39,399 bases of DNA, taken from Candidatus Iainarchaeum sp. (lineage in GTDB: Archaea; Iainarchaeota; Iainarchaeia; Iainarchaeales; Iainarchaeaceae). A model generated the notes under the pieces. The model was not told where the DNA came from and searched no databases. It saw only the letters and a program-made list of their open reading frames with translations. Within the stretch, counting starts at the first letter, position 1. Every line of letters starts with the position of its first letter. A program made the position numbers and the translations under genes. The stretch is from the NCBI GenBank assembly GCA_043812975.1, contig JBDRLP010000042.1:1-39399 (forward strand), written 5' to 3'. Positions 13,717 through 31,953 of this stretch are shown here, piece after piece.

Positions 13717-14226
13717 ATGGCATTTTTAGTTGATGATAAAGCAATATTAAGAGACAAAAAACTCGGAGACCAGCTTAGACAAAGAGGCTTCGGAGAACAA
13801 AAATCCAAAGAATTAGTGTTAGACTTATTTGAGACTGCTTATTTACTTGAAAAGGGAACAATCAAAATTGAAGATTCCAAGGAAAAACACATTGATTCTG
13901 AAGAACTAATCAAATACGCTTCCAAAAAAATCAAGAATTATTATTTAAAATACCAAGTATTCAATGACCTCAGAGAAAGAGGTTTTGTTATAAAAACCGG
14001 TTTTAAGTTCGGATTCGATTTCAGGGTTTATCCTCGCGGAAAAAAACCAGGGCAGGCCCATTCTCAGTGGTGTATTAATGTTACAGCACAACAGGATAGG
14101 TATAACTTTATTGAGCTAAGCAGAATGGTCAGGTTAGCAGGAAACCTGAAAACAAAACTCCTTAATGCAGTTGTTGATTCTGAAAATGAAATCAATTACT
14201 ATGAAGTAACAAGAATTACTCCCTAA
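13717..14226 (+). CDS. endA: tRNA-splicing endonuclease (single-unit type)
   Basis: LDLFETAYL, DLRERGFVIKTGFKFGFDFRVY...HS, AVVDSENEINYY. Confidence 0.92.
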   Translation: MAFLVDDKAILRDKKLGDQLRQRGFGEQKSKELVLDLFETAYLLEKGTIKIEDSKEKHIDSEELIKYASKKIKNYYLKYQVFNDLRERGFVIKTGFKFGFDFRVYPRGKKPGQAHSQWCINVTAQQDRYNFIELSRMVRLAGNLKTKLLNAVVDSENEINYYEVTRITP

Positions 14227-14251
14227 CTTTTAAGCTGGAAAGGATTGTTCC

Positions 14252-14932
14252 ATGACAACTAAATTAGAAGCTATCAAAAGAGGCTGTAAGCTTAACGATC
14301 AGATTTTTTCAAAAGTAGTTGCAAAACTAAAATCAAAGGAATTCAAAACTGAAAAAGACGTTTCTAGATTTATTAATAAAGAAATCAAAAAAGCAGGTGC
14401 AAAAAAAGCATTCAACACAATTGTTGCTTCAGGTTCTAATGCAGTTAACTGGCACCACAAACCAACTACAAAAAATCTCCGAAAAGATTTTTGCGTAATT
14501 GATTTCGGCTCAAAGTTCAGTGGTTATTGTTCTGATATTACCAGAACGGTTTTTCTTGGAGAAGCCAGTAAAAACGAACTAAGGATTTACAACATAGTAA
14601 AAAGAACTCAGGAAAAATGCATTAAAAAAATCAAAGAAGGAACCAACACTAACGAGCTTTACTTATTCGCAAAAAAAAGTTTTGGTGCTTATGCAGATTA
14701 TTTTGGCCACGGCCTTGGACATGGGTTAAGCAAAAAAATCCATGACAAGCCAAGAATAGGAAAAAAAGAATCAAAACTAAAAGCAGGGCAGATTATTACG
14801 ATAGAACCTGGGATTTATATTCCTCGATTGCTTGGAATCAGGGTTGAAGATGATATACTTGTTAAGAAAAATGGTTACTTGGTTCTTTCAAAAAGCCCAA
14901 AAAGACTTATTGAAATTAACCCTAAGATTTAA
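14252..14932 (+). CDS. M24 family Xaa-Pro peptidase (catalytic domain only)
   Basis: DFG..YCSDITRT, GHGLGHG..IHD, TIEPGIY, GIRVEDD metal ligands. No N-terminal creatinase domain. Confidence 0.88.
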   Translation: MTTKLEAIKRGCKLNDQIFSKVVAKLKSKEFKTEKDVSRFINKEIKKAGAKKAFNTIVASGSNAVNWHHKPTTKNLRKDFCVIDFGSKFSGYCSDITRTVFLGEASKNELRIYNIVKRTQEKCIKKIKEGTNTNELYLFAKKSFGAYADYFGHGLGHGLSKKIHDKPRIGKKESKLKAGQIITIEPGIYIPRLLGIRVEDDILVKKNGYLVLSKSPKRLIEINPKI

Positions 14933-14956
14933 ATTGCAAATGGAAGTTACTTTTTT

Positions 14957-15466
14957 ATGGTACGAAGAAATGTCAAACATAAAAAAAAGAGAAGAGATAA
15001 CGAGAGAATGCAACCTCAAAGGAGTGTTCTGATTCCTTTCGGGTCTTTTGAAAGAGTCGCATCGCGAATGAAAAGAGCAATACCACAACAAACTTATTTA
15101 CACAGGATAAATAACTGGGGAAATATAAAAAGAAAAGAACTCGGTTTTGGGGATGCAAGAGAAAGCTCTGAAAGAATAAACGAAAAAATAGAGTTAATCA
15201 AAAGATCGCATGAAAGCGGAAGACTTACTGAGAATTCTCTTCACAAGCATGCTTTTGGTTTGGAACAACTCGCATGCAGGCTCACGGATGAGGTTCTGCT
15301 AGTTAATCATGGAAAATTAAAGCGAGCAGATAGAGAAAAAACCCTTGAACAAATGTTTTCGGCTGAAGAATGGAATGCTGCTTATTTGAAATATATGGGG
15401 GAACTTTGGCATTTGATGCCGGCTCCACTACAACAAATCATGATTGAAAGATTAATGGAAAAATAA
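14957..15466 (+). CDS. Hypothetical protein with very basic N-terminus
   Basis: 169-aa ORF filling the intergenic space. No recognised family. Confidence 0.55.
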   Translation: MVRRNVKHKKKRRDNERMQPQRSVLIPFGSFERVASRMKRAIPQQTYLHRINNWGNIKRKELGFGDARESSERINEKIELIKRSHESGRLTENSLHKHAFGLEQLACRLTDEVLLVNHGKLKRADREKTLEQMFSAEEWNAAYLKYMGELWHLMPAPLQQIMIERLMEK

Positions 15467-15873: not shown

Positions 15874-17553
15874 TTAGTCACAATCAGTAATTGCGCCTTC
15901 ACTTGCTCGACCCACGGTTTTTGCATATTTTCTCAAAACACCAGTATATTTCATTGGTTTCGGCTTCCAGTTTTTCATTCTTTTTTCAATTTCTTCATCA
16001 CTTAAGTCGACTGAAAGTTCTTTATTATCAGTATTAATTGTAATCATATCGCCTTCTTTCAGAACACCTATTAATCCGCCAGCCTGTGCTTCCGGACAAA
16101 CATGCCCAACAACCAACCCATGGGTTCCCCCGGAAAATCTTCCATCAGTAATCAAACCAACTTTGTCCCCCAAACCTTCACCAACAAGAGCTGCAGTTGG
16201 CGCAAGCATCTCTCTCATTCCTGGTCCGCCTTTTGGACCTTCATAACGAATAACAATAACTTCTCCTTCTTTTATTTTTTTGTTCAAAATTGCATCAAGA
16301 CATTCTTCTTCTGATTCAAAAATTCTTGCAGGTCCAATTATTGAAGTTTTTTTCAATCCAGAAACCTTTGCAACGCAACCATTAGGTGAAAGATTTCCTT
16401 TCATGATTACCAAGTGGCCAGTTTTTCTCAGAGGATTTTCTAAACTTCTTACAATTTCATGATGATCTGTAAGTCCTGGAAAGTTTTCGTAATTTTCTTT
16501 CAAAGTTTTTCCTGTTACAGTCATCGTGTCTCCGTGTAATAGATTAGCATCAAGTAAAACTTTCATTACTCCTGCTGATCCACCTACTTTTGCAAGGTCA
16601 GCCATTACAAATTTTCCTGATGGCTTTAAGTCTGCAAGATGCGGAACTTTTTCAGCGATTTTATTAAAATCCTCTATTTTCAAATCAACACCGATTGTTT
16701 TTGCCATTGCTAATAAATGTAAAACTGAATTAGTTGAACCGCCAAGAGCCATTACAACAGCGATAGCATTTTCAAAAGCTTTTCTTGTAAGGATATCTTT
16801 TGGTTTAATATTTTTTTCAATAAGTTTAAGCACTGCTTTTCCTGCTTCCGCAGAATCATCTTTTTTCTCTTTACTTTCACCTGGGTTTGAAGCAGAACCA
16901 GGAAGACTCATACCTAAAGCTTCAATAGCAGTAGCCATTGTATTAGCCGTGTACATTCCTCCGCAGGAACCATGTCCTGGGCAGGCATTACATTCAATTC
17001 CTTTGAATTTTTCAGCATCAATTTTTCCTGCAGCATACTGTCCAACTGCTTCAAAAATACTTACAATATCAACAGCTTTGCCATCATATTCTCCAGGCAT
17101 TATCGTTCCACCATAAACAAAAACACTTGGAATATTTAATCTTGCAATTGCAATTAAGCAACCAGGCATGTTTTTGTCACAGCCTCCAAAAGCAACAAGA
17201 CCATCAAAAGCCTGAGCATTACCAACAACCTCAATTGAATCTGCAATAACTTCTCTTGAAACTAAAGAGTACTTCATTCCTTCAGTACCCATTGAGATTC
17301 CGTCGCTTACAGTTATTGTTCCAAAAGTTTGAGCTTTTCCATTAGAATTTTCAACAGCTTTCTTTGCTTCTATTGCTAATTTGTTAATGTGTGCATTGCA
17401 TGGAGTTATTTCACTCCATGTTGAAGCAATTCCAATAATTGGTTTTTCAAAATCAGCATCCTTAAAACCAACAGCTCTAAGCATAGCTCTGTTTGGTGCT
17501 CTTTTGTCTCCTTCAGTTATTCTGGAACTTCTTTCATTTAGTTTTGTACTCAT
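15874..17553 (-). CDS. ilvD: Dihydroxy-acid dehydratase
   Basis: [51 protein letters not shown]. Confidence 0.97.
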
Positions 17554-18788: not shown

Positions 18789-18946
18789 TAGCATTCAAAA
18801 AATTACCAAATTTTAAAAACCTGTGGAACACCTATATTTATTGCCAATGATGACCTGACAATTAACTGGATTCTCTTTAGATAATATAACCTTTGTTAGT
18901 TTCTTATCGCGATAGTTTTTTATTTCGGAAAAATAAGATATACTCG

Positions 18947-19864
18947 ATGAAAAATCAAATTTTTATTGTTTGCTTGGTTTTGAGTGTTGTTCTCTTTAGC
19001 GGTTGCACTCAACAGCCTGTTGAAGGAACTCAAGACATTGGGCAACAGGCAAACACTAATAGTCTTGATTCAACTACTGAAGCAGATTCTAAAGAAGAAG
19101 TCGGCGTTGGAGGCAATACCCCAATAAAAAATAATGCTGATGCACAAGAGTCTAGTGAAGAAACTGGCTTGAAATTCAGTGAGTGGAAAGCTTCGGATAA
19201 TTCAATCACTCTTCAAGTTCCTGAAGGCTGGACTGCTATTGAAAAGCAAGTTGACAACTGCACTGTGGACTGGTCAGTGAGCGATGTCGGCAAAAAGAAC
19301 TCAGCTTACATGACAAATCAGATAATGGTTCTAAAGTCTGAAGAAGCAAGACAAATGTACAAGCTTTACGGCTTGACTGGAATTGACAATGCGCCAGTTT
19401 TTGCATACATGAATGCAGAATTAGCGTCTTCTCAAATTGTTGCTCCGCTTTCCGGCTCAAGCAATTTGCAGGTTGTTGAAACTGATGCTGAAATAACCAT
19501 GCTGTTCTCGCAGGCTGTTTGCATTCAAGGCCTTGCGGCGTGCGATGCTGAAGTCTTTGAAGCAACTTATAAAAATAATGGTCTGCAAATGAAGGGCAAA
19601 TACTTTGTTCAAACTTTTGACCTTGGAGAAGGCACTACTTGGTGGATTAATGTTTGGGGATATACTTCCCCTGCAAACCAGTGGGAAGAATCAAAAGCAG
19701 TTTTGGAAGAAATATTCACTTCAGTAAAATACACTGAAGATTGGGCGGCAAAATGCAAAAGCAATACAGACACAACAAGCAGTATCATTAGTGAAATTGT
19801 CAGAAAGCGCCAAGAATCCGCAGAAAAAACAACAACAGAATGGGACAATTATATTAGAAGCTGA
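18947..19864 (+). CDS. Lipoprotein of unknown function
   Basis: MKNQIF...LFSGC lipobox, low-complexity linker, PsbP-like ITLQVPEGW. Confidence 0.75.
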   Translation: MKNQIFIVCLVLSVVLFSGCTQQPVEGTQDIGQQANTNSLDSTTEADSKEEVGVGGNTPIKNNADAQESSEETGLKFSEWKASDNSITLQVPEGWTAIEKQVDNCTVDWSVSDVGKKNSAYMTNQIMVLKSEEARQMYKLYGLTGIDNAPVFAYMNAELASSQIVAPLSGSSNLQVVETDAEITMLFSQAVCIQGLAACDAEVFEATYKNNGLQMKGKYFVQTFDLGEGTTWWINVWGYTSPANQWEESKAVLEEIFTSVKYTEDWAAKCKSNTDTTSSIISEIVRKRQESAEKTTTEWDNYIRS

Positions 19865-19923
19865 CAAAAACCTAATTAAAAAAGTTTTTGGCAAGAATTA
19901 TTCTTTGAAAAAATTAATGTCTG

Positions 19924-20634
19924 TTACTCAAGGTTGCTAACCACAATATCAGCGTAGGCTAGGGCGTTATCAATTGTAAAATTGCCGCCATATATTCCTC
20001 CAACCAGCACAGTGTGAATAATATTTTTTGTCCTGAATGAAACAGTTGAATAAGAAAAAACTTCGCCCTCCGTTTCTCCAACTATTTCAAATCTGTAAGC
20101 AATGCTTTCCTCACCTTTTTTTGGAGCGGACAAAACAGTAAAGCCTTCGGCATCTTTTATCGTTTGCTTCCAGTCAGCAAAGCCGTTTTTTGCGCCTTCG
20201 CTACTGGCATAGAGAACTAATTCGTGTTTTACAACAAGGTCTTCTAGCAAAACATTTGCACTTACTTCTTTCTGAAAAAGAACTTGATACGATTCCAGCC
20301 ATCCATTTTCAATGGCTTTTTCTTTGTCGCCCTCTGATTCAAAAGCATCTTCTTCTTTGATGGATCCGCTTAATTCTTCCGCCTCAAAATAACCTGGCTT
20401 CAAATCTTCCAGTGAAAGAGCATAGTTTTCTATAGGGCTTTCAAACAAGGTTTCCACTGGCATTTCAACAAAATCATTTTCTTTTACATCGTCCTTTTCT
20501 GGGGCCACGACTTGAGGTTCAATGCCAGAATCCTGTGGGGCTACGGGGTTCTCAGTGTTTTCTGGCTGAGCGCATCCGACCAAAAGAATGCCTAAAAAAA
20601 CAAGTGCTACAATCAAGCCATTTGTCATTTTCAT
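19924..20634 (-). CDS. Lipoprotein of unknown function
   Basis: LLVGC lipobox, acidic mature domain. Confidence 0.75.
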   Translation of the reverse strand: MKMTNGLIVALVFLGILLVGCAQPENTENPVAPQDSGIEPQVVAPEKDDVKENDFVEMPVETLFESPIENYALSLEDLKPGYFEAEELSGSIKEEDAFESEGDKEKAIENGWLESYQVLFQKEVSANVLLEDLVVKHELVLYASSEGAKNGFADWKQTIKDAEGFTVLSAPKKGEESIAYRFEIVGETEGEVFSYSTVSFRTKNIIHTVLVGGIYGGNFTIDNALAYADIVVSNLE

Positions 20635-20723
20635 ATCCTTATTAGCTGAATAAGTAGTATAAAAAAGTTCCTTTTGTTTGTTTTGGCCATTTCAAGAATC
20701 TTCTGTGAAAAATAGCGAAAATG

Positions 20724-23495
20724 TTATTTTACTCTAATATAACTCGCATACGTCCCGTAAAAGTTGTCAAAGAGTATTAATGTATTTCCGTTAACTGAAA
20801 AAGTGTAAAAGAAAGTGCCATAAGAACCGTTCAACGCCAGGGTGTTGCCATTGATGCCGTAGGTCCCCTTCACAAACAGCTTACCTGAAATGTATGACTC
20901 GTAAGTTCCTTCAGAACTGAAAATCGCTGTCTCATTAACAAAAGCGTTATACCAGCTCCCGACAATGGGATTGGGCTGTTGTGCACTGCTTGTTGATTTA
21001 GTGAAAGAGACTTCCGAACCACTTGAATCGGTTATTGTCAAGGTTTCACCAGAAACAACATAACCATAAGTTGTTTCTATTCCCTTATTAGACATGAAAA
21101 GTTTTCCGTTCAGGGTGTTGAAAGTGCCGAGAATTTTTTTACCACCAACTTGCCAAATGTAACTGCCATCAGAATTGAACTCTAGGTAAGCCGAGCCACT
21201 AATCCATTTTCCAACCAGAGAGGAATCCTGTTCCTTGTCAGGCTCATCTTCTTTCACTCCGTCCTTCCAAAGAACATATTTTCCGCCTTCAAACATTTCA
21301 GTCAGCTCGAGTTTCTTGGATGATATGTCAACCATGAAAACCATAAACACAGGTTCCTGGCTACCGGCATCAATCAAAAACGAAACCAATGGCAGACCAT
21401 TGTTGTTCCTGAACCAGTAAACGCACGGACTCTGTTTTATTCCGACTGCTGAAATGCATGTGCTGTCCTCAAAAATCGCGAATCCTAATCCATCACCAAT
21501 CCAGTTTCCGATTATATCTGAATTCGAAACCTCCGGGTTAGCTTCCGGCTGGTTCTGAACATCAACAACCGTGAACTGGGTTACATAGTTCCCTGAAATG
21601 TCTCCTATGAAAAAGCCAATCATGTACTGGTTTTTCGGAAGCAGTGCTAGGTCAACCCACAAGCCATTCTCACCAAAAGAGATGCTGTCAGCCTTGGTTA
21701 ATCCAAACTCGTCTGAGTCACCGTCATAGAATTCTATGTAAGGTGCAAATGAGTCCCCGACAACAGGAGTGAAACCACTGACCACTATTCCATCACCAAC
21801 AGAGGTTAGCCTTGTTGAGGAAACGAGCTGCCCGGTCCGATAGTCAAAAACCAGAACTGCCTCAAAAGGATTTGGTTCGCCTGCACTCTGATACTCGCCG
21901 TTGGCGGCAAAATAATAATCGCTCCCCCCTGCAGGAGAAAGAGGAGCAATAACCTGTTTTTGACCGTTAGTGAAAACCTCTGCCATCGGCGCCCACGTGA
22001 AATCAATGTTGTTGACACCGTCAACAAACTCAGGAAGTTTCCTCTCACCATTATAGTCCGTGTAAACCTGTGTGAGATTATGGTTATTCATCATGAATAT
22101 CTTGCTGCCATCCACAAGACCTATCACCCTGAAAATCTTTACAATATTGTTACCAGTTGCCTTGCCATAAACGCTCAAAGGGTTATCCATATTCGCGACT
22201 TTTGAAGAAGTGCTTTCAATCACAATGCTGGGTGCAATCTCATCAGTCTTCTCGACTTCAATGTAGCCTCTGATAAAATCATCCCAACCGCTTTCAACAG
22301 CAAACTTTGATGAAGATGCATAAGAAGAATTGTAGAGAAACTCATCCTCAGGAAAATAAATCGAGAGGCCGTTCGCAAAAGGATGCTCACTCCCATGGTA
22401 CTCTGCGATAATCATCTCACCCAGAGCTTCTCTGAGATTAGAGGTCGCCTCATTTATTTCCGGGTCACCTGTTTCCTGCGAAACCAGTTCGGCAAAATCA
22501 ACAAAGTCATAACTGCTCTGGGATTTCATTGTAGCCATGCCCCCGAACTTTGCAAATGCCTCGGAGAAATAAATGCTCTTGCCAATTCTCGGCCAATAAT
22601 TTGCAGTGTTCTTTTTGAGAACAACAATCAGTTTTTTTGCTGCCTCGTTCACACTACCCATTTTGCTCAAATCAAAAGCAGCGATTGTGGTGAATGGATT
22701 CGGAATTTCTTCGGAATAAAACTTCTCATACTTCTCGACAAGTATTCTGGCCAACCGCACTTCATTCATGTCAGGTTCCTTCACGAGCTCAGCAAGGGGG
22801 CCGGCATAATCAACCCCCGGCCCTGGAATTGTTTCCTCAGACGCAACCATTACTTTCACGTGTGACTGCATCGCATATAAAACATCAATCTGTCCCATGA
22901 GGCACTGATTCAGAACAAGCAAATCCAACTTGTTCTCTCCGCTGAAACCTGCTTTCCCAAGTGCATCTGCAAGCCCCTGAACAGAAGCCTCTGTTTCTGA
23001 TGTCTCATCTTGCATATGCGGTCCCCAGCCACCTCCATGATTCCACACATCCAATAAGTAATACTTTGCAGGATAATTCTGAGTTCCCCATTCAACAAAA
23101 TCAACAAGGGAATTCATATCCCCCATATCAACCTCGCCCAAATCCATTAACTCCTCTGACTCGACAATACCTTCCTCAACGCCTTTTTTAATCAAAAATC
23201 TCTTTGTACCAGACCAGTCACCATTACTTGAGTCATAACCGGGATTTCTGTCCCACTGGACAATGATATTAACTTTCTCTGTTGAACCAACACTCTCAAG
23301 TTTATCCATGTCAAAAATCGAATTGGGTTCGAGGTTGTTGTCAGAATCCATGTAAACAAGCACAGTCCACCCCACCAAATCCGCAGGCAAATCTGCCGGT
23401 AAATCCTGATTTGGTAATGGCTCAGGCGGCTCAGGACAACCACTAAAAAAAACAAGAAGAACTAAAGCAAAAATGCATAGATGGCAAAATTTCAT
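20724..23495 (-). CDS. Clostripain-family (C11) peptidase lipoprotein with C-terminal lipocalin-like repeats
   Basis: FSGC lipobox, WTVLVYMDSDNNLE, YPAKYY..VWNHGGG (His), NQCLMG (Cys), ASEE, GLSIYFP. Repeats IIGNW/LVGKW/IVGSW. Confidence 0.9.
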   Translation of the reverse strand: MKFCHLCIFALVLLVFFSGCPEPPEPLPNQDLPADLPADLVGWTVLVYMDSDNNLEPNSIFDMDKLESVGSTEKVNIIVQWDRNPGYDSSNGDWSGTKRFLIKKGVEEGIVESEELMDLGEVDMGDMNSLVDFVEWGTQNYPAKYYLLDVWNHGGGWGPHMQDETSETEASVQGLADALGKAGFSGENKLDLLVLNQCLMGQIDVLYAMQSHVKVMVASEETIPGPGVDYAGPLAELVKEPDMNEVRLARILVEKYEKFYSEEIPNPFTTIAAFDLSKMGSVNEAAKKLIVVLKKNTANYWPRIGKSIYFSEAFAKFGGMATMKSQSSYDFVDFAELVSQETGDPEINEATSNLREALGEMIIAEYHGSEHPFANGLSIYFPEDEFLYNSSYASSSKFAVESGWDDFIRGYIEVEKTDEIAPSIVIESTSSKVANMDNPLSVYGKATGNNIVKIFRVIGLVDGSKIFMMNNHNLTQVYTDYNGERKLPEFVDGVNNIDFTWAPMAEVFTNGQKQVIAPLSPAGGSDYYFAANGEYQSAGEPNPFEAVLVFDYRTGQLVSSTRLTSVGDGIVVSGFTPVVGDSFAPYIEFYDGDSDEFGLTKADSISFGENGLWVDLALLPKNQYMIGFFIGDISGNYVTQFTVVDVQNQPEANPEVSNSDIIGNWIGDGLGFAIFEDSTCISAVGIKQSPCVYWFRNNNGLPLVSFLIDAGSQEPVFMVFMVDISSKKLELTEMFEGGKYVLWKDGVKEDEPDKEQDSSLVGKWISGSAYLEFNSDGSYIWQVGGKKILGTFNTLNGKLFMSNKGIETTYGYVVSGETLTITDSSGSEVSFTKSTSSAQQPNPIVGSWYNAFVNETAIFSSEGTYESYISGKLFVKGTYGINGNTLALNGSYGTFFYTFSVNGNTLILFDNFYGTYASYIRVK

Positions 23496-23636
23496 AAATT
23501 AAAGAAAGCTTTAGATGATTTATTTCTTTTGGTGCTTCAAATCCACGAAAATTTTGCCGAAAAACACGGGGATTCATTGAAAATGCGAAACTAGAGGTAA
23601 TGTGCGAAAGAACCTTCTAAAACTTATGAGAAACTT

Positions 23637-23885
23637 GTGAACAAAAGAATACTTGCTTTAGAAAAAAAGCCGGAAATATTTGATAAAATTATTCATGATG
23701 TGGAACCTATTAATGAAATGGAGTATATTGTGAGAATAACAAATACACAAACCAAGCTTTTTGACAACAAGAACAAAACCATCGTAAAAGAATCAAAAGA
23801 AGCCAGAATGATACTTGAAAAACTATCAGATTATACAAAAGAATTAAACACAAAGAAAGAATACGTTTATGCTACCTATAGGTAG
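23637..23885 (+). CDS. Small hypothetical protein, possibly a gene remnant
   Basis: 82-aa ORF with GTG start and A-rich coding-like composition. Confidence 0.35.
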   Translation: MNKRILALEKKPEIFDKIIHDVEPINEMEYIVRITNTQTKLFDNKNKTIVKESKEARMILEKLSDYTKELNTKKEYVYATYR

Positions 23886-23933
23886 AAGTAGGCAACACAT
23901 AGATTTATTAAGCAAAATGTACTTTATTATCGC

Positions 23934-24065
23934 ATGCCATACAGAGAAGGAGTAACAACAATACAACTTACACCCACAACCCGGGACAAACTCAAAGACC
24001 TAGGGAAAAAGGGCGAAAGCTACGAAGAAGTAATACTACGCCTAATAAAAGCTTATAAAAAATAG
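23934..24065 (+). CDS. Small RHH/antitoxin-like protein (43 aa, not in ORF track)
   Basis: MPYREGVTTIQLTPTTRDKLKDLGKKGESYEEVILRLIKAYKK: TTI.L...RD.L...G.KGESY..VI.RL pattern of archaeal RHH antitoxins. Confidence 0.75.
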   Translation: MPYREGVTTIQLTPTTRDKLKDLGKKGESYEEVILRLIKAYKK

Positions 24066-24083
24066 TCCAACACAGAAATAATA

Positions 24084-24166
24084 GGCTTGGGAGATGTGGA
24101 AAATGACGATGATTCTGACTCTCATTCAGGAGCATGAGGATAGATGGGCGGACTGAATCCCAAGCC
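24084..24166 (+). ncRNA. Box C/D sRNA-like gene (copy 1); D guide matches 16S C1402
   Basis: Terminal stem GGCTTGGGA/TCCCAAGCC, C-like ATGACGA (24103-09), C' ATGAGGA (24134-40), 12-nt guide TAGATGGGCGGA, D box CTGA (24153-56). Confidence 0.7.
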
Positions 24167-24211
24167 ATTGTACTATTTTAGCTATTGCAAGCCACTTCAG
24201 AAAGCATTATA

Positions 24212-24235
24212 TATAACAATGTGCACAATGTTATA
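24212..24235. promoter_or_regulatory. 24-bp palindrome overlapping the TA promoter (operator)
   Basis: TATAACA-A-TGTGCACA-A-TGTTATA, one mismatched pair, 3 nt before the PIN ATG. Confidence 0.65.
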
Positions 24236-24238
24236 CAT

Positions 24239-24748
24239 ATGCTTGTGGTGAAAGATTCCATGGTTCTCATACACCTTGCCAAAATAACGGTTCTTGAAAA
24301 AAGCTGTGGTCACTTTGGGAACATCATAATTCCGAAAAAGGTTTTTGATGAAGTGGTTACAAAAGGAAAGGAAAATAATTATCCGGATGCCATCATCGTA
24401 GAAGAAGCAGTAAAAAAGGGGAAAATTTCCGTAAAAACTGTTAAGGCTAAAGAGCTGGAGAAAAGAGCCAACCAATTCAATGTTTTTGGCGGTGAAGCAG
24501 AGGCAGTGGCACTTTACTGGCAGGAAAAAGCAAATCTCATAGCATGTGATGACGACAATGTCAGGAACAAGAAGGAAATACTGGAAATAAACATTATTGG
24601 CACGCCTTCAATATTACTTTCGCTTTACAGAAAAAAGAAAATAACAAAGGAAAAGCTTGAAGAGTCAATAAATAAGCTTAGACAAATAGGCTGGTTTAAC
24701 AATCAGGTTCTGGATGCAATACTGTTGGAGGTGCATAAAAATGGGTGA
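24239..24748 (+). CDS. PIN-domain toxin (DUF3368-like)
   Basis: VVKDSMVLIHLAKI, IPKKVFDEV, GGEAEAVAL, IACDD, IIGTPSIL. Confidence 0.85.
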   Translation: MLVVKDSMVLIHLAKITVLEKSCGHFGNIIIPKKVFDEVVTKGKENNYPDAIIVEEAVKKGKISVKTVKAKELEKRANQFNVFGGEAEAVALYWQEKANLIACDDDNVRNKKEILEINIIGTPSILLSLYRKKKITKEKLEESINKLRQIGWFNNQVLDAILLEVHKNG

Positions 24749-25043
24749 ATCACACGCAATAGGAATACGCCTTGAAAATAATCTGCTCAAAAGGGTAGAC
24801 AAAATGAGCGAGGAAGAAAAACTGGACAGGTCGACAGCAATAAGGGTGCTCATAGAAGAGGGTTATGCCTCGCGTTCGAGAAAAAAAGCCGCCGCAGATT
24901 ACGCCGCAGGAAAAATAACCATGAGCAAGGCCGCAGAAAAATCCGGCACGACCATATGGGAATTTGAACAATACCTAATAAGCACTGGTTATAAGTCACA
25001 ATATTCAATAAGCGACCTCATGGAAGAAGCTAAAAAAATCTGA
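24741..25043 (+). CDS. UPF0175-family antitoxin with N-terminal RHH
   Basis: IGIRL...LDRSTAIRVLI, YAAGKITMSKAAEKSGTTIWEF. Overlaps the PIN gene. Confidence 0.85.
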   Translation: MGESHAIGIRLENNLLKRVDKMSEEEKLDRSTAIRVLIEEGYASRSRKKAAADYAAGKITMSKAAEKSGTTIWEFEQYLISTGYKSQYSISDLMEEAKKI

Positions 25044-25088
25044 ACAGATTCCGCAAAAATACGAGCATCATACATAGAGAGCCTGAAT

Positions 25089-25156
25089 AATCACTTGACG
25101 ATGACACAGAGCTGATTCACAGCGATGACGAAAGATTGGCGGACTGAGGCGTGATT
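25089..25156 (+). ncRNA. Box C/D sRNA-like gene (copy 2, diverged)
   Basis: Stem AATCAC/GTGATT, C TTGACGA, guide TGACACAGAG, D' CTGA, C' ATGACGA, guide AAGATTGGCGGA, D CTGA. Confidence 0.72.
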
Positions 25157-25246
25157 TTTAATCCTTTATAGCATTTAAAATCAGTAAAATACTGAAAAAT
25201 AGTACCTTATAGTAACATTTATAAGCTTTTTAGCATCAATTAATAC

Positions 25247-26467
25247 ATGGTTTCAAAATATGATTTGCTTTATTCAGTCTTCCTGAACGAAGGATTGACC
25301 GCCGCACAACTTGTGAGGAAAATAGGCAAAACACCTTATGATTACGACACGGTTCTAAAGCACCTTTTGCAGCTTAGAGAAGAGAAGTTAGTTGAAACTA
25401 AAAAAAACAAATATTACTTATCTCAAAAGGAAGAAACAAAAAAACTCCTCAGGATAATTGATTATTGTTTCAGAAACAAAATAAATTACAACGAACTATT
25501 TCTGGATAAAACAATCGAGTTCATTAAATTTGGATTGGAGAACAAAGATTTTTCAGAACTTGGTCTCAACAACAGGACAAGAGCAAGAATTTCCTTGTTT
25601 TTATCAAAACACGGTTTCATAATAATTGAATCAAAAAAACCATTCAAAGTAAAAATGGTTTACTCGGATTTCCTGAAAAAAACTGTTGAAATATTCAAAG
25701 GCGAAATTAAAGTCAAATGCGACAAAATCTACGAACAAATGGATGGGGAAGAAATAGATTCACAGATAGAAAAAGAATTCTCAAAATACAAAAAAGCAGC
25801 AAAACAAATAAACCTCAATGACGAGGTGCGCTTCGTCCATAGGAGCCTTTCACTCGAAGGCAACACAATGACTCTCTCCGAAACAGAGAAGCTGATAAAA
25901 CAAAACATTCCTCCGAAAGAAAGGACTTTTCAGGAAATGCAAGAAACAGTGGACTACAAGAAAGCACTTGATTATCTTATTGAAATAAAAGAACTGGACT
26001 TTGAAACAACCCTTAAATTCCACGGAACAGCAATGAACTCATTAAAGGCCGGCGCGGGAGAATTCAGAAAGCAAAATATCAGGATTAAAGGCAACCCTGA
26101 TTTTAAGACAGCTGACTGGAGGCAAATACCAAATCGCTTGGAAGATTTATTTAAGTATTACCAAAACAAGATTCACAAAAAAATCAAGGCACATGAATCT
26201 GTTGAACTATCCGCCTATCTCCACAGTGAGTTCCAACATATTCACCCATTCATAGACGGCAACTCTAGGACATCAAGAGCAATATTCATTCACGTACTTT
26301 TACTGAAAGGTTTTCCTCTCATTAATTTTCCTGCGGGTTTTGTCGAACAGTACATGGAACTCACAAAACTCTCGAAAAAACGGGATGACAAAAAATTCAC
26401 GGTTTTCATGAAGCAACTTGTACTGCATTCTTTGAAGCAGACAAACCAGAAAATAAGATACTTGTAG
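25247..26467 (+). CDS. Fic-domain protein with N-terminal wHTH
   Basis: HPFIDGNSRTSR Fic motif, SLSLEGN inhibitory motif, GEFRKQNIRI. Confidence 0.92.
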   Translation: MVSKYDLLYSVFLNEGLTAAQLVRKIGKTPYDYDTVLKHLLQLREEKLVETKKNKYYLSQKEETKKLLRIIDYCFRNKINYNELFLDKTIEFIKFGLENKDFSELGLNNRTRARISLFLSKHGFIIIESKKPFKVKMVYSDFLKKTVEIFKGEIKVKCDKIYEQMDGEEIDSQIEKEFSKYKKAAKQINLNDEVRFVHRSLSLEGNTMTLSETEKLIKQNIPPKERTFQEMQETVDYKKALDYLIEIKELDFETTLKFHGTAMNSLKAGAGEFRKQNIRIKGNPDFKTADWRQIPNRLEDLFKYYQNKIHKKIKAHESVELSAYLHSEFQHIHPFIDGNSRTSRAIFIHVLLLKGFPLINFPAGFVEQYMELTKLSKKRDDKKFTVFMKQLVLHSLKQTNQKIRYL

Positions 26468-26487
26468 AAAGAATTTGAAATAACTCC

Positions 26488-26523
26488 TCATCTTTCGGGT
26501 TAGATGGGCGGACTGAGGCTTTT
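26488..26523 (+). repeat. Direct repeat copy 3 (3' part of the C/D-like unit)
   Basis: TCATCTTTCGGGTTAGATGGGCGGACTGAGGCTTTT, 32/36 identical to 31918-31953. Confidence 0.9.
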
Positions 26524-26622
26524 TGATTCTTATTTAAAACAATAATGTTTTCTAAACTCCCGGGGTTTCATGATTGCGAAATAACGAAAGTATTATATTG
26601 TTTTATAGCGTCTTAATTTTAA

Positions 26623-27063
26623 GTGGTTGAAATGAAGGTTCGGGATGTTTTTCAGGAGAATTCTGGGTTTGTTGATAAAGTTTTGGGAAGTGACTCTATT
26701 GAAAAGGTCATTGCAGTAATGGGTTTGAATAAGGAAACTCGAACTGTTTTTGTAGTTGATGAGTCGAAAAATTTAATTGGAGTAATAACAATACACGAAA
26801 TTTTTGACTATGTATTTGATGAAATGAAACCAAAAATACTAAATTGGTTTAATAAAAAGAAGCATCTGAAAGCAAAAGATATAATGAGGCCTCCAATAAC
26901 AATTTCATTGGATGATGCTTTGGATGATGCTTTGCGTGCAGCAAAAGCAAGTAACCTGCAGGATCTTCCGGTTTGCGAAGACGGAAAGGTGGTTGGAGAA
27001 CTGGATTGCTTTGAGCTTTTGGATGGATTGGTTTCGAAAGACAAGAATTATTTTGAAGAGTAA
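26623..27063 (+). CDS. CBS-domain pair protein
   Basis: VFVVDESKNLIGVITIHEI, KAKDIMRPP, DLPVCEDGKVVG. Confidence 0.88.
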   Translation: MVEMKVRDVFQENSGFVDKVLGSDSIEKVIAVMGLNKETRTVFVVDESKNLIGVITIHEIFDYVFDEMKPKILNWFNKKKHLKAKDIMRPPITISLDDALDDALRAAKASNLQDLPVCEDGKVVGELDCFELLDGLVSKDKNYFEE

Positions 27064-28739
27064 TCAATATTATAATTGAATTCCGTATTTTTTAACCAAT
27101 CCAATTCGAAATTTTTTCCTTCTTTGATGTCTTTTAGAATTGTTTTAACTTTGTCTGCCGTAATAATTGATGGAACTAAAACAAATTCGATTCCTGCTGA
27201 ATAGAGCTTTCTTGCATTAGACACATCGTGGGCCAAGACAATAAGTTTTGTGTCACTGTTTTTCTGCAACAGTTTTTTAGCTAAAATAGTATTCGAGTCA
27301 ATATTCTGTATAGTCGAAATAACGACTTTTGGTTTTACTTGCATAATAAACTCAATTGTCTCCAAATCAGATATGTCTCCATAAAGTGTGTTGAATTTTT
27401 GTTTGGCTGCTTCTTTTAATGCTCTTGGATCAAAATCTATTATCAAAACATCTTTCTCATTTGTATTCTCATTAAGAAAAATTCTTTTTCCTGTTCTGCC
27501 AAATCCTATGCAAACTAAGGAATATTCCTTATCCTCACTCATATGCAGTGAATCTTCAAAAAACATTTTGCTTTTTAAAACAGGTAAAAATTCAACAAGG
27601 CAATCATACAAATTATTATTATAAATAATTAGGTAAGTGGAAGCACTGATAGTTGCGACTGCAACCAAAGTTATTACTGAAGCAACTTCAGCAGACACGT
27701 GTCCTACTTTTTCTCCCAAAAAAATTAGTATTAAGGAAAATTCGCTTATTTGGGCAACAGTCAGACTGGAAAGAAAACTTGTTCTCCCCTTATAACCAAG
27801 TTTGGTCATCAGGATAAAAACGATGATTGGATTTCCTACGAGAACAAAGATTGAAAATATTATTGCCGGAAGAAGAATAATTTTAGAAGATACAAACACC
27901 AAATTTGAACCAAGAACAACAAAAAACAGCACGATAAAAAAGTCTCTTAGATATTTCAGTTTTCCTAATACTTCATAAGTGTAAGGAAGAGAGGCTATTG
28001 AAATTCCAGCCAAAAAAGCTCCAATTTCTTTGGAAAATCCAAGGAAAATGGCTACTGCAGAAAAAGCAAAGCACCAGGAAATAGCTCCGAGAAAAAGTAA
28101 TTCCTGATTTTCAGAAAGTGAATCGAATATTTTTTTGACAAAAAATTTTGATGCAATGAAAAACAACAAGAACAGCAAAACCAAATTTATGACAAACGTT
28201 GAAAGCTGACTCGTTAAATCGTTTGAAAAAGAAAAAGAGGATATCAGAACAAGAGCGATGATTGCAACAAAATCCTGCACCAGCAGAAAACCAATAGAAA
28301 TCTTTCCGTACAAGGAATTCAATTCTTTCTTATCGGACAAAAGTTTTACGATTATAATGGTGCTGCTGAAAGTTAATGCAATTGCTATATACAAAGACTC
28401 TAAGAACTCAAAGCCCAAAAATGATGCAATTGCAAACCCGACAATAGTAGTAAAGACTATCTGTCCTATTCCGGTTATAACTGAGGTTTTTCCTATTTCC
28501 TTGAAAATCCTCAAATCAAGATTCATTCCGACAAGAAATAGCAGAAAAGCTACTCCAAGTTCTGAAAAAACATCTAATAATTCGGTATAAGTTATTACTC
28601 CTAAAAAAGAAGAGCCGAGAAGAATTCCTGCAAAAATAAAAGCAAGTAGAATAGGTTGCTTAAACTTCCTGAACACAAAACCAAGCAATGTAGCTACTAC
28701 AATTACTGCTGCAAGCTCCAGAAAGAAATCCTCTAACAT
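27048..28739 (-). CDS. CPA2 cation/H+ antiporter (KefB/KefC-like) with TrkA-N domain
   Basis: FLLFLVG, SSTIIIVK, LLVQD, LRDFF..LFFV, AQISEFS, GFGRTG. Confidence 0.92.
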   Translation of the reverse strand: MLEDFFLELAAVIVVATLLGFVFRKFKQPILLAFIFAGILLGSSFLGVITYTELLDVFSELGVAFLLFLVGMNLDLRIFKEIGKTSVITGIGQIVFTTIVGFAIASFLGFEFLESLYIAIALTFSSTIIIVKLLSDKKELNSLYGKISIGFLLVQDFVAIIALVLISSFSFSNDLTSQLSTFVINLVLLFLLFFIASKFFVKKIFDSLSENQELLFLGAISWCFAFSAVAIFLGFSKEIGAFLAGISIASLPYTYEVLGKLKYLRDFFIVLFFVVLGSNLVFVSSKIILLPAIIFSIFVLVGNPIIVFILMTKLGYKGRTSFLSSLTVAQISEFSLILIFLGEKVGHVSAEVASVITLVAVATISASTYLIIYNNNLYDCLVEFLPVLKSKMFFEDSLHMSEDKEYSLVCIGFGRTGKRIFLNENTNEKDVLIIDFDPRALKEAAKQKFNTLYGDISDLETIEFIMQVKPKVVISTIQNIDSNTILAKKLLQKNSDTKLIVLAHDVSNARKLYSAGIEFVLVPSIITADKVKTILKDIKEGKNFELDWLKNTEFNYNIDYSSK

Positions 28740-31393
28740 ACATTAATCACCGGTTCTTTTTTGTAGTTTATAACAAATTTTAGTGCTTCGAGAAAGACAA
28801 GTGCAGTGAATGCGGCAGATATAGTGATTATCCATTCCACTGGCGTTAGTGTTGTGAATTCAAATATTTGTTGAAAAAAAGGAACATTCATTACGATTAG
28901 TGTTGTCAGGGCTACAAACGCTGTTGCGGGCAGCATCCATTTGTTTGTGAATAATCCAATTTTGTGTACTGGTTCTTCCAATGATCTAAACGCATAAGGA
29001 ACAAAAACCACCATACTGACGATTGTTGCAAATACCATTGTCCTTGCCCTTTCAATATTTGTTAGCGGGTCTGCATAAATGAATACTGCGAGAGCAATTA
29101 GAGCCATAAATGCAGCCATGCTGAGTATTATTATTGCATTTTTTTTCACTAAGAAACTTTCCGTTGGATTTCTTGGGGGGTTTTGCATTATTCCTTTTCT
29201 CGGAGGTTCGGCTCCAAGAGCTAATGATGGCATTATTTCGTCAAAAGAGTTTATGAAAAGAATCTGTAATGCAAGTAATGGTAGAAAATCAAAATCAAAA
29301 AGAGCTATGCCTACAAATATTAAAATTACTTCAGTAAAATTTCTTGAAAGAAGATAAGTAGTGAATTTTCTTATATTTTCATAAATAGTCCTTCCGCCTT
29401 GGATGGCATCTACTATTGTTGCAAAATTATCGTCTATAAGAATCATGTCTGCTGATTCTTTTGTAACATCAGTGCCTTTTATCCCCATTGCTATTCCAAT
29501 ATCTGCTTTTTTTATTGCAGGTGCATCGTTTATTCCGTCTCCAGTCATTGCAACAATATGTCCTTTTTTTTGCAGAATTTTAACAATTCTCATTTTGTGT
29601 CCTGGATTTGTTCGGGCATAAATTACAGTGTGGTCGATGATTTTCTCAAATTCTGAGTCATTCATTTCATCTAATTCTTTTCCAGTGATTATTCTTTGGT
29701 CATTGTTGTTTAGCAGACCAATTGCTTTAGCTATTGCCTTTGCAGTATGCGGATTATCCCCTGTTATCATAACTGTTTTTATTCCGGCAGTTTTACAGGT
29801 TTCAATAGCCTGCTTTACTTCTTCTCTCGGAGGATCAATCATTGCAGCTAATCCTAAGAAAACAAGGTCTTTTTCAATATTTTTTTGTGTAAAAGGCAAT
29901 TGATTTTTTTTATATGCAAAACCCAATACTCTAAGAGCATTGCTTGCAAATGTTTCATTTATTTTTAGAATTTTTTCAGTTTCTTCTTTTGAAAGTTTTT
30001 CTGTTTTCCCATTTTTTTGAATAAACGTGCATTTTTCCAGAATTTCTTCAGGACCGCCTTTGGAAAAAACCATTCTTTCATTTCCTGTTTTATGAACACA
30101 ACTCATCATTTTTCTTTCACTTGTAAAAATAATTTCTTCAAGTCGTTGATTTTTTTTCTCTAAATCATCTTTCCACTCTTCTGCTTTTGCAGCCAAAACA
30201 ACCAATGCTGCTTCAGTAGGGTCACCAATAATTTCCCATTTACCTCCTTTCTTTTCCAAGAAAGCATTATTGCATAAAGCACCTGCCCTTAGCATTGTTG
30301 TTATTGTTTTATCGCTTTTAGGGTCAATTTTTTTTCCATTAATAGAGAATTCTCCTCTTGGTTCATAACCTGCTCCTGTTACATCAATTATTGAATCGTT
30401 TACAAAAAGTTTTTCTACAGTCATTTCATTTTTTGTTAGAGTGCCAGTTTTGTCTGTACAAATTATTGTTGTACTGCCTAAGGTTTCAACTGCGAGCATT
30501 CTTCTTATGACTGCATTATGTTTCGCCATGTTATGCATTCCCCTTGAAAGAGTAACGGTTAGTGTTAATGGCAAACCTTCCGGAACTGCAGCAACAGCTA
30601 ATGCCAGAGCGACAATCAGCATTGCTGCAATGGGAGTACCCTTAAGAATGCCAAGCAAAAATATTAGTGCACATGCAGTTAAAGCAAGCATAGCGATTCT
30701 TTTAGCTAATCGGGTTATTTTTATTTGAAGCGGGGTTTGTTCATCTTCTTCTTGAATCATTTCAGCAATTTCTCCTATTTTTGTCTGCATTCCCGTTGCA
30801 AAAACAATTGCCTTGCATTTCCCATGAACAATACTTGTACCTGCAAAAATATTCTCTTCTGTTGATTTTTCCACTGCTTGGCTTTCTCCGGTTAATGTTG
30901 ATTCATCAACCTTCATGCCAATAACTTCAATTATTTTTGCATCTGCAGGAATCTTGTCACCCATTTCCAACAAAAGTATATCCCCGGGAACAAGTTCTCT
31001 TGTGAGAATTACCTTCACTCCATTGTTACGCATAACTTTGGTTGTTGACTTCACAATTTTTTTAAGAGCTTCCATTGATTTTTCTGCTTTGAACTCTTGG
31101 ATAAATCCTGCGATGACTATGAATACAATTATAGCTAATGTAGCCCAGAAGCTTAGAGTTTCTCCAATAAAATAAGAGATAAATGCTGCTGCAAACAGAA
31201 TCCAAATCAAGAAATTGCTAAATTGCCTTAACAAGATTTTTGCCGGCGTGATTTTCCTTTTTTCTTTTAATTCATTGTATCCGTATTCTTTCAGTCTCTT
31301 TTCGACTTCTTCCTCAGCGATACCTGTTGAACTGCTTCCAAGTTCTTTCAGAATATCCTTTGACTTCATTTCAGCAAAATTTTTCATACGCAT
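28733..31393 (-). CDS. P-type IIA cation (Ca2+-like) transporting ATPase
   Basis: DESTLTGES, PEGLP, DKTGTLT, GDPTE, MITGD, TGDGINDAPA. Confidence 0.95.
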   Translation of the reverse strand: MRMKNFAEMKSKDILKELGSSSTGIAEEEVEKRLKEYGYNELKEKRKITPAKILLRQFSNFLIWILFAAAFISYFIGETLSFWATLAIIVFIVIAGFIQEFKAEKSMEALKKIVKSTTKVMRNNGVKVILTRELVPGDILLLEMGDKIPADAKIIEVIGMKVDESTLTGESQAVEKSTEENIFAGTSIVHGKCKAIVFATGMQTKIGEIAEMIQEEDEQTPLQIKITRLAKRIAMLALTACALIFLLGILKGTPIAAMLIVALALAVAAVPEGLPLTLTVTLSRGMHNMAKHNAVIRRMLAVETLGSTTIICTDKTGTLTKNEMTVEKLFVNDSIIDVTGAGYEPRGEFSINGKKIDPKSDKTITTMLRAGALCNNAFLEKKGGKWEIIGDPTEAALVVLAAKAEEWKDDLEKKNQRLEEIIFTSERKMMSCVHKTGNERMVFSKGGPEEILEKCTFIQKNGKTEKLSKEETEKILKINETFASNALRVLGFAYKKNQLPFTQKNIEKDLVFLGLAAMIDPPREEVKQAIETCKTAGIKTVMITGDNPHTAKAIAKAIGLLNNNDQRIITGKELDEMNDSEFEKIIDHTVIYARTNPGHKMRIVKILQKKGHIVAMTGDGINDAPAIKKADIGIAMGIKGTDVTKESADMILIDDNFATIVDAIQGGRTIYENIRKFTTYLLSRNFTEVILIFVGIALFDFDFLPLLALQILFINSFDEIMPSLALGAEPPRKGIMQNPPRNPTESFLVKKNAIIILSMAAFMALIALAVFIYADPLTNIERARTMVFATIVSMVVFVPYAFRSLEEPVHKIGLFTNKWMLPATAFVALTTLIVMNVPFFQQIFEFTTLTPVEWIITISAAFTALVFLEALKFVINYKKEPVINVC

Positions 31394-31504
31394 AACCTAA
31401 CTGTTAATTTACATAATATTATTCTAATAATACCTATAAATAGTTTCACGCTTGCGTAATTAGGTAAGTAGATTATTCAAAAAAATCGTTTTTGTTAGAA
31501 TGCG

Positions 31505-31774
31505 TTAAATATGTTTTATTACTTGGTCATAGGCTTTGAAAAGCTGCTTTATTTCTTTTATTTTAAGAGAATAGAATTTTTCAGGCGGTTCATATGCCGA
31601 GTCAATAATTCTCAAATCATACAGCATCTTCAAATGTCTTGAAGCAAGCGATTCGCTCAAATTTAGTTCTTCAGCAATTTCATGCACAGATACACGCTTT
31701 CTTTTACAAAGAATCTTTAAAATATTTCTTCTGGATCTTGCACGAATTGCCCTTGCGAGTTTTTCATCAGACAT
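31505..31774 (-). CDS. ArsR/SmtB-family HTH regulator
   Basis: RRNILKIL...SVHEIAEELNLSESLASRHLKML. Confidence 0.85.
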   Translation of the reverse strand: MSDEKLARAIRARSRRNILKILCKRKRVSVHEIAEELNLSESLASRHLKMLYDLRIIDSAYEPPEKFYSLKIKEIKQLFKAYDQVIKHI

Positions 31775-31917
31775 TAGTAACTAAAAAAACAGTACCGACA
31801 TTCTTTAAAGTCTTTAATAAATTAGTCCTCAGAAAAAAAGATGAAAAATTAAGCGATTTAAGGAAAAGATGAATTAAACCAAGTTAGTGGTACAAATAAA
31901 ACTATGTAATTATTTCT

Positions 31918-31953
31918 TCATCTTTCAGAGCAGATGGGCGGACTGAGGCTTTT
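31918..31953 (+). repeat. Direct repeat copy 4 (3' part of the C/D-like unit)
   Basis: TCATCTTTCAGAGCAGATGGGCGGACTGAGGCTTTT. Confidence 0.9.

Follow-up and report, generated by a model that had tools for sequence, protein, structure and literature searches.

What is a piece of a guide RNA gene doing between the accessory genes of an archaeon, and why does it occur there four times? The window analyzed here, that is, the whole stretch of 39,399 nucleotides of contig JBDRLP010000042.1 from Candidatus Iainarchaeum sp. (order Iainarchaeales, DPANN archaea), carries four copies of the 15-mer AGAT(G/T)GGCGGACTGA, at 24142, 25133, 26502, and 31932, which belong to four repeat units, R1 to R4. An earlier reading of this DNA, made without database searches (hereafter the sequence-only reading), had assigned the repeat to a box C/D small RNA (sRNA) and had proposed that this RNA gene serves as an attachment site or as a repeat that shuffles gene cassettes. 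It had also named checks: a genome-wide count of the motif, an empty site with a single sRNA in relatives, cassette gain or loss breaking at the repeat, excision junctions in reads, and an integrase beside the motif in relatives. Our results support the proposed role, and most of these checks turned out in its favour. The sRNA gene stands at the front of one-directional arrays of gene cassettes, the cassettes are bounded by a 17-nt core identical to the 3' end of the sRNA, and probably they move by site-specific, integron-like recombination at this core.

The four copies were found at the positions reported before. All of them are on the + strand and fall between long open reading frames (ORFs), as had been stated. 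The chance expectation in the window is 0.09 copies, and none of 100 shuffles reached four. In the whole assembly (1,237,545 bases in 68 contigs, 94% complete), the four window copies were accompanied by one copy with a single mismatch on contig C27, and a reversed-pattern control gave zero, so that the motif is not scattered over the genome. A tRNA fragment was considered as the origin of the motif and was dropped on inspection of the sequence.

Archaeal box C/D sRNAs have a C box (RUGAUGA) near the 5' end, a D box (CUGA) near the 3' end, and a terminal stem. In relatives, the sequence follows the canonical dual-guide layout: GCC, ATGATGA, cctgacgatgatt, CTGA, loop, ATGAGGA, tagatgggcgga, CTGA, and GGC. 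An exact 14-mer match was present in 18 of 61 related genomes, mostly as one copy and inside a canonical C/D sRNA. The D guide forms 10 contiguous Watson-Crick pairs with the 16S rRNA of the window genome itself (ACCGCCCATCAA), and the D' guide forms 10 Watson-Crick and two G-U pairs with it at GGTCATCGTCAGC; both guides thus have the complementarity of about 9 or more base pairs that marks an archaeal C/D methylation guide. The window genome encodes fibrillarin, Nop5, and L7Ae. The pairing with rRNA, the canonical layout in relatives, and the presence of these three proteins indicate that the 15-mer consists of the D guide and box D of a guide RNA that is real and conserved and that is predicted to direct 2'-O-methylation of 16S rRNA. 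By the fifth-nucleotide rule, the target of the D guide is presumably C1402 (E. coli numbering) in the decoding centre. A loose regular-expression scan of the genome for C/D sRNAs returned mostly noise.

The decoding-site sequence of the window genome's 16S rRNA (C12, about 846-857) reads CCGCCCATCA in place of the CCGCCCGTCA of most organisms. The sRNA guide carries a T that matches the changed sequence, and guide and target therefore appear to have changed together. The 16S gene lies in pieces on two contigs (C53:6244-7061 and C12:17-983), which indicates that the rRNA operon is incompletely assembled. In a complete-looking genome (G038:C1; L059:5706 and 9828), two full canonical sRNA copies lie 4 kb apart, with radical SAM, methyltransferase, and regulator genes between them, and one of the two copies has a guide change (GATGCGCGG).

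The 3' end of this sRNA gene recurs in the order as part of a conserved element of ~50 nt, which we call type C. Its left arm, CCTCATCTTTC-N6, is followed by the 17-nt core, GATGGGCGGACTGAGGC, which is identical to the sRNA 3' end; the consensus in an alignment of 38 distinct units is G(T/G)AA(C/T)TAA-nn-CCTCATCTTTC-N6-GATGGGCGGACTGAGGC. Of 196 genomes of the order, 17 contained the pattern. With a covariance model derived from the 38-unit alignment, matches were obtained in 20 of 151 genomes, which represent 17 of 66 genera and 10 families; in the window genome, R3 and R4 were the only matches. The conservation of the left arm extends over unrelated cassettes and over the 10 families.

Behind the sRNA gene, type C units line up in one direction, and an array can contain as many as 12 of them in 10 kb. 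In G171, a long-stem variant of the sRNA is followed by a unit of the R2 kind (type B, with the same CATCATACATAGAG flank as in the window) and then by ~10 type C units within 10 kb. In G047, G115, G113, and G110, and on three short metagenome contigs, a full sRNA is followed by 1-3 cassettes, each ending in type C. The cassettes of relatives and metagenome contigs are thus flanked by direct repeats, with the full sRNA upstream and type C downstream; in the window, the upstream copy R2 is itself truncated. All 49 units at the 16 loci with at least two units were on one strand per locus, and 68 of the 84 ORFs inside arrays, called with our own longest-ORF script, were co-oriented with the repeats. 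The median spacing was 979 bp and cassettes are usually ~1 kb long. The cassette genes are mostly toxin-antitoxin genes (MNT/HEPN, HicA/B, MazF with RHH, MazE-like, ParE-like, and PIN), together with Fic and GT2 glycosyltransferase genes, and many cassettes apparently have an AT-rich, TATA-like upstream sequence of their own.

Several other features were observed at these loci. A non-coding mini-cassette of ~90 nt (GGTGTTGAATTTTTAATTT..., with the core at its end) is present at two array loci of G115 (L094:7522-7625 and L096). In G113:C1 (L097:1970-5068), an ORF of 1032 aa encodes a HerA-type ATPase with an intein splicing domain; this ORF is immediately followed by a truncated sRNA 3' half and a Fic cassette. 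In G015:C20 (L041:10028-16031; L054), genes for a TrbC/VirB2-like pilin, a PrgI-like protein, and a VirB4/TraG-like ATPase and an insertion sequence (IS) DDE transposase gene lie beside a type C unit that abuts ilvD. The full sRNA of this genome is at the start of another contig, so that its continuity with the conjugation-type region is not established. A shorter VirB4-like remnant lies beside the long-stem sRNA of G007.

The cassettes behave as modules whose borders are set by the core. When array spans were aligned between genomes, 50 of 140 endpoints of high-scoring segment pairs were located within 5 nt of the core, against 5.3 expected from uniform placement; homology between relatives, whose cassette content differs, thus breaks at the repeat. 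Fic, GT2, MNT-HEPN, and HicAB cassettes align core-to-core, and no further, between genomes of different families; such core-to-core Fic cassettes are found in G047, G171, G115, G113, and G070. The left arm and the N6 spacer go with the upstream cassette, and the sequence past GGC goes with the downstream cassette. The same cassettes turn up in several genomes and arrays, with different neighbours. Within one genus and next to one right flank, one genome carries HicAB and MNT-HEPN, another carries MNT-HEPN and Fic, and a metagenome contig carries a single ORF of 89 aa. A junction in G115 connects a piece of an array with a membrane-protein gene at the point where ACCATC meets GGCGGACTGAGG. The last 15 codons of the gene, which are kept in five orthologues, are replaced at this junction, and this places the breakpoint inside the core. 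The disrupted gene (G115:C55; L096:10656-11192) encodes a dolichol-kinase-like membrane protein and lies downstream of the Nop5-fibrillarin genes.

The locus of the window is itself polymorphic. The window is syntenic with the same-genus genome G001 up to 17590 (upstream of ilvD) and again from 31956, which is 6 nt past the R4 core; the same flanks are separated by 1.2 kb in G001 and by 14.4 kb in the window. The order in G001 is ilvD, sRNA, an ORF of 108 aa, a type C unit 89% identical to R4, an ORF of 165 aa, and then the shared right-flank genes; this is a nearly empty site. The order in G003 is ilvD, sRNA, and Fic. Single-copy sRNA loci in G011, G054, G038, G041, G049, and G040 represent unoccupied sites, and many relatives have one sRNA and no partial copy. 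The empty site with a single sRNA that had been named as a check is therefore found repeatedly. Since synteny resumes directly after R4, the core genes start there and not one ORF later as had been claimed.

The variable region of the window contains five sRNA-derived pieces. The first one, GCCAATGATGACCTGAC (18843-18859, + strand), comprises GCC, the C box (ATGATGA), and 7 nt from the start of the D' guide, after which unrelated DNA follows. It is absent from the text of the sequence-only reading although 18843 is the start coordinate given there. This 5' fragment matches the intact sRNAs of G003 and G001 through CCTGAC and diverges thereafter. The fragment, the sequence downstream of it, and a lipoprotein-like gene are shared with G047, where a full sRNA comes next, and an analogous split of the sRNA is present in G007, where the flank is identical to that of the intact sRNA of G011.

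An accessory block (18860-23933, mixed strands) follows the 5' fragment. It contains ORFs of 323 aa (18893-19864, +), 236 aa (19924-20634, -), 923 aa (20724-23495, -), and 82 aa (23637-23885, +). The 923-aa ORF belongs to the clostripain family (Peptidase_C11 with a C-terminal DUF5640 in Pfam), and the other three gave no Pfam match. Identity to G047 is 80.5% over positions 18838-19882; in that genome, the gene is located between the sRNA 5' fragment and a full sRNA. In G001 and G003, ilvD and the sRNA do not have this block between them. A VapB-like ORF of 43 aa (23934-24065, +; DUF7557 in Pfam, E 1.3e-10, and a weak VAPB_antitox match) comes next. This ORF and R1 are conserved together in G007 (72%), G014, and G171, indicating that the ORF travels with the long-stem sRNA.

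R1 (24084-24166, +) is the long-stem sRNA variant, A-long. It has a 9-bp terminal stem, ATGTGGA at the place of the C box, the D' guide and CTGA, the C' box ATGAGGA, a 12-nt D guide, and box D (CTGA); its internal boxes are arranged as in relatives. The long-stem variant (RTGTGGA or GTGTTGA) also occurs in G171, G007, G017, and G021. R1 had been described as a complete C/D unit. All four boxes and the stem are indeed present, but the C box is non-canonical (ATGTGGA instead of RTGATGA). A PIN-like ORF (24185-24748) and an RHH/UPF0175 ORF (24714-25043) form the next module (24185-25043, +; assigned with Pfam, where the PIN match is weak). G014 has the region from R1 to R2 with 79.5% identity. 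The position of the PIN-UPF0175 genes is taken by ~20 nt in G007, in G171, and on one metagenome contig, which indicates an insertion or deletion rather than a core-bounded cassette.

The type B left flank (CATCATACATAGAG...; 25066-25094, +) leads into R2 (25095-25150, +); the same flank precedes CTGACGATGA in G007, G014, and G171. R2 is the sRNA 3' part from the D' guide on. The claim that it is a complete unit does not hold, because R2 is truncated and has no canonical C box, and its guide reads GATTGGCGG, in which a G-to-T change removes the match to rRNA. Rfam gave a weak sR2 match at R2 (24.1 bits against a gathering score of 42) and nothing beyond it, and no Rfam family matched type C. 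The right flank of R2 is the flank of the intact G003 sRNA, and the interior of R1 matches the G003 allele; both units are thus mosaics. CTGAC is present at both junctions of the split. As part of the explanation that we favour, the arrangement of the pieces suggests that the original sRNA was probably split inside the D' guide into the 5' piece at 18843 and the 3' piece R2, with the intervening DNA bringing its own long-stem copy R1.

The two remaining modules of the window end in type C. The Fic cassette body (25151-26468, +) contains the Fic ORF (25247-26467, Pfam), whose product shares 47% identity, along its entire length, with the protein of the G047 Fic cassette. Protein homology was tested as the reason for the left flank that this cassette shares with a 235-aa cassette of G047, and the answer was no. 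R3 (26469-26519, +; core 26503-26519) matches the type C model with 72.5 bits (E 1.5e-14). The large block after it (26520-31898, mixed strands) encodes a CBS protein (26623-27063, +), a CPA2/KefB-like antiporter (27048-28739, -), a P-type ATPase (28733-31393, -), and ArsR (31505-31774, -), as assigned with Pfam and NCBIfam; within the family, only G005 has a close partial copy of this transporter block (85-86% identity). R4 (31899-31949, +; core 31933-31949; 69.7 bits) is the right end of the variable region. Box D is the only box in R3 and R4, which agrees with the claim that they keep just the 3' guide and D box, and both belong to the conserved type C class. The gene names proposed for the modules were mostly borne out (clostripain, RHH/UPF0175, Fic, CBS, KefB-like, P-type ATPase, ArsR, and, weakly, PIN-like); the names hotdog and lipoprotein had no match in Pfam or NCBIfam.

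These data place the sRNA gene at the head of the cassette array and establish the architecture of the arrays and their core-bounded modularity. In the mechanism that we propose, cassettes would enter and leave by site-specific recombination, in which the core of a cassette would recombine either with that of the sRNA 3' end or with that of a second cassette, in the manner of attC x attI recombination in integrons or of islands at tRNA genes, and the gene of the recombinase would lie at another place in the genome. The Fic cassette between R2 and R3 of the window and the 5.4-kb transporter block between R3 and R4 fit this scheme. Since neither an integrase nor a free cassette was found, we infer the mechanism of capture; the most likely one is site-specific capture by a recombinase that acts in trans. 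A wider and more tentative form of the proposal is that the Iainarchaeales possess a so far undescribed platform for gene capture, similar to an integron in its working but made of other parts, in which the sRNA 3' end might be the primary site and type C the cassette site, a recombinase encoded elsewhere might move promoter-bearing toxin-antitoxin and other cassettes, and larger conjugative-type elements might attach at the same sRNA gene.

A number of observations weigh against site-specific capture. Pfam searches detected no integrase among the 20 ORFs of the window or among 236 ORFs around the arrays of relatives (126, 35, and 75); the sole transposase among the scanned ORFs is the IS DDE transposase of G015. 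The sequence-only reading was thus right that no recombinase is encoded inside the array, and the integrase that it had suggested looking for beside the motif in relatives was not found. The integrases of the window genome are on C20, C26 (one beside tRNA-Glu), and C27, none near the array, and the tyrosine recombinases of five array-bearing genomes are on other contigs or far away. The 18-kb contig C26 carries two tyrosine integrase genes (5364-6623 and 14103-15296), one of them next to tRNA-Glu (15979-16054); this pair looks like tandem integrated elements at a tRNA gene. IMG/VR contained no exact match to the 17-mer core, and none of the eight metagenome contigs with type C had the overlapping ends of a circle. 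Excision junctions were not seen either: contigs from four DNA read sets with a small share (0.05-0.08) of the stretch contained no core-to-core joint. No RNA read set with the stretch was found. The same read-set contigs had one joint from 24167 to 25055 with 18 other letters between, on one contig with a depth of 2.7.

The window and type C itself add further points of this kind. The left block, from the lipoprotein-like gene to RHH, and the PIN-UPF0175 module are not core-bounded as the Fic and R3-R4 modules are; the 18860-23933 block is bounded by the sRNA 5' fragment, and PIN-UPF0175, which lies between R1 and the left flank of type B, has no core on its left side. With its length of 5.4 kb and with three genes that run against the repeats, the R3-R4 block differs from typical cassettes. 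R1 and R2 are mosaics. All genomes compared are metagenome assemblies. The folding energies of type C are ordinary (z-scores of 0.18 and 0.64). Two candidate helices of type C showed no two-sided covariation, and since all changes are one-sided (wobble), covariation cannot establish type C as a structured site.

The same architecture could also arise without a dedicated recombinase, by homologous recombination over the 17-nt core and ~25 nt of similar left arm, with toxin-antitoxin cassettes accumulating by penalising deletion between direct repeats. The lack of a recombinase at any array scanned and the dominance of toxin-antitoxin modules are consistent with this, and mosaic sRNA copies are what exchange between homologous copies is expected to produce. 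It is nevertheless unlikely, because exchange based on homology alone does not require a left arm conserved over unrelated cassettes and 10 families, and because the G115 junction lies inside the core at a target without homology. A length of 17 nt would also be very short for RadA-type recombination.

Type C might instead act mainly at the RNA level, as a module with which cassette transcripts end. It could be a signal for end protection or processing that was taken over from the sRNA, or it could serve the 16S site as a decoy or an additional guide; the arrays would then be a by-product. Type C directly follows stop codons, most array ORFs are co-oriented with the units (see above), and T runs follow R3 and R4. 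The left arm and the beginning of the guide can form a CTCATCT/AGATGGG hairpin, in which 91.4% of cells are paired and all changes are compatible with G-U pairs on the + strand. However, type C has neither a C nor a C' box and therefore no K-turn for L7Ae, its folding energies are ordinary with no pair changed on both sides, and R4 has no co-oriented gene upstream. Since this explanation also leaves the homology breaks exactly at the core unaccounted for, we consider it improbable.

A further possibility, similarly improbable, is one-ended insertion in the manner of a transposon, with the target being duplicated on entry; the repeated sRNA 3' ends would then be 17-nt target-site duplications and not recombination cores that belong to the cassettes. 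The CTGAC at both junctions of the split sRNA would agree with such insertions, as would the hairpin-element sequence found directly after the core in G001 and in G114. On the other side, the left ends of the cassettes share no terminal sequence, no transposase is present in the cassettes, and none of the five array-bearing genomes has an IS110-type recombinase (PF01548). GC-rich hairpin repeat families are scattered over the window genome (C1, C4, C14, C18, C44, and others), with 6 copies of CCACAGCCGAAACTGTGG and ~8 copies like CACCGACGCAACGGTG; one of these hairpins immediately follows the type C core of G001, and another follows the sRNA of G114 (L039:9988-10030; L081). Finally, a chance match or a generic dispersed element (a miniature inverted-repeat transposable element (MITE), a repetitive extragenic palindrome, or a terminator) without relation to the accessory genes has nothing but the T runs after R3 and R4 in its favour and is already refuted by the copy counts, by the restriction of type C model matches to R3 and R4, and by the position of all units of relatives at sRNA-anchored arrays.

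Site-specific capture at the sRNA gene thus remains the best explanation, and the cassette arrays account for the mosaic or broken sRNA copies at this locus. To our knowledge, integration in archaea has been described almost only for tRNA genes. In the literature searched, we found no description of sRNA-anchored cassettes, and C/D sRNA genes are not reported there as attachment sites or as anchors of cassette arrays. The type C/sRNA repeat provides a way to locate accessory and toxin-antitoxin genes in uncultured genomes, and, if the proposed mechanism is true, the conserved 17-nt core and the ~50-nt cassette site would provide a handle for finding the recombinase.

Integrons are among the closest known systems, and the arrays work in a similar way to these and to tandem islands at tRNA genes. 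The attC site of integrons is an imperfect palindrome with inverted core sites at both ends. The repeat described here is conserved in sequence, its last 17 nt are identical to an RNA gene, and the 38-unit alignment shows a fixed 3' core with no conserved inverted site after it, in contrast to attC. The array head is also different, since it is a C/D sRNA gene here and attI next to intI in integrons, and no IntI was found at the arrays. Furthermore, many of the present cassettes apparently have their own AT-rich, TATA-like upstream sequence. What is shared with integrons and integrase-less cassette clusters (CALINs), including those of archaea, is the tandem, one-directional order of short cassettes, each with a recombination-site-like repeat at its end, as well as the frequent lack of an adjacent integrase and the greater similarity of repeats within a lineage (PMC9668308). 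This report on archaeal integrons rests on attC and IntI. Toxin-antitoxin cassettes occur in both systems; their link with integrons is reported in another study (PMC13108822).

Integrative elements at tRNA and tmRNA genes resemble the arrays in other respects. In a review of archaeal tyrosine recombinases, these elements have the 3' part of an RNA gene duplicated as direct repeats, an intact gene upstream (as in the canonical arrays), tandem stacking, and empty sites in relatives (PMC8371274); the terms sRNA and snoRNA do not occur in its main text. The flanking direct repeats and the unoccupied sites are found here too. The present target is, however, a C/D box sRNA, the inserts are ~1 kb long and encode no integrase of their own, and the type C left arm is common to unrelated cassettes.

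Integrative mobile elements that exploit the dif system (IMEX) lack an integrase and stack in tandem and in one orientation at dif via the host recombinase. The arrays are similar in the integrase-less, one-orientation stacking at a single site, which in this case is an sRNA 3' end without obvious dyad symmetry. The C/D sRNA genes of Pyrobaculum show duplications, composite sRNAs, an sRNA-like MITE, rearrangement, and unstable regions; the word integration does not occur in that study, and it reports no cassette arrays with partial sRNA copies as their borders (PMC6009581). A phage attachment site in ffs, the 4.5S RNA gene, is alike in that attB, with its short identical core, lies in a small RNA gene other than a tRNA gene, whereas the reported case concerns a single bacterial prophage with its own integrase and no cassette array (PMC12540744). 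With no IntI, no attC-type site, and no element-borne integrase, the arrays fail the defining tests of integrons and of tRNA-gene islands. The finding is nonetheless a real and non-trivial one, an RNA-gene-anchored, integron-like cassette array that is undescribed as far as we searched. If the proposed mechanism is true, it would represent a second, independently built route to modular gene capture, and this in the DPANN archaea, which have small genomes and probably rely strongly on the exchange of genes.

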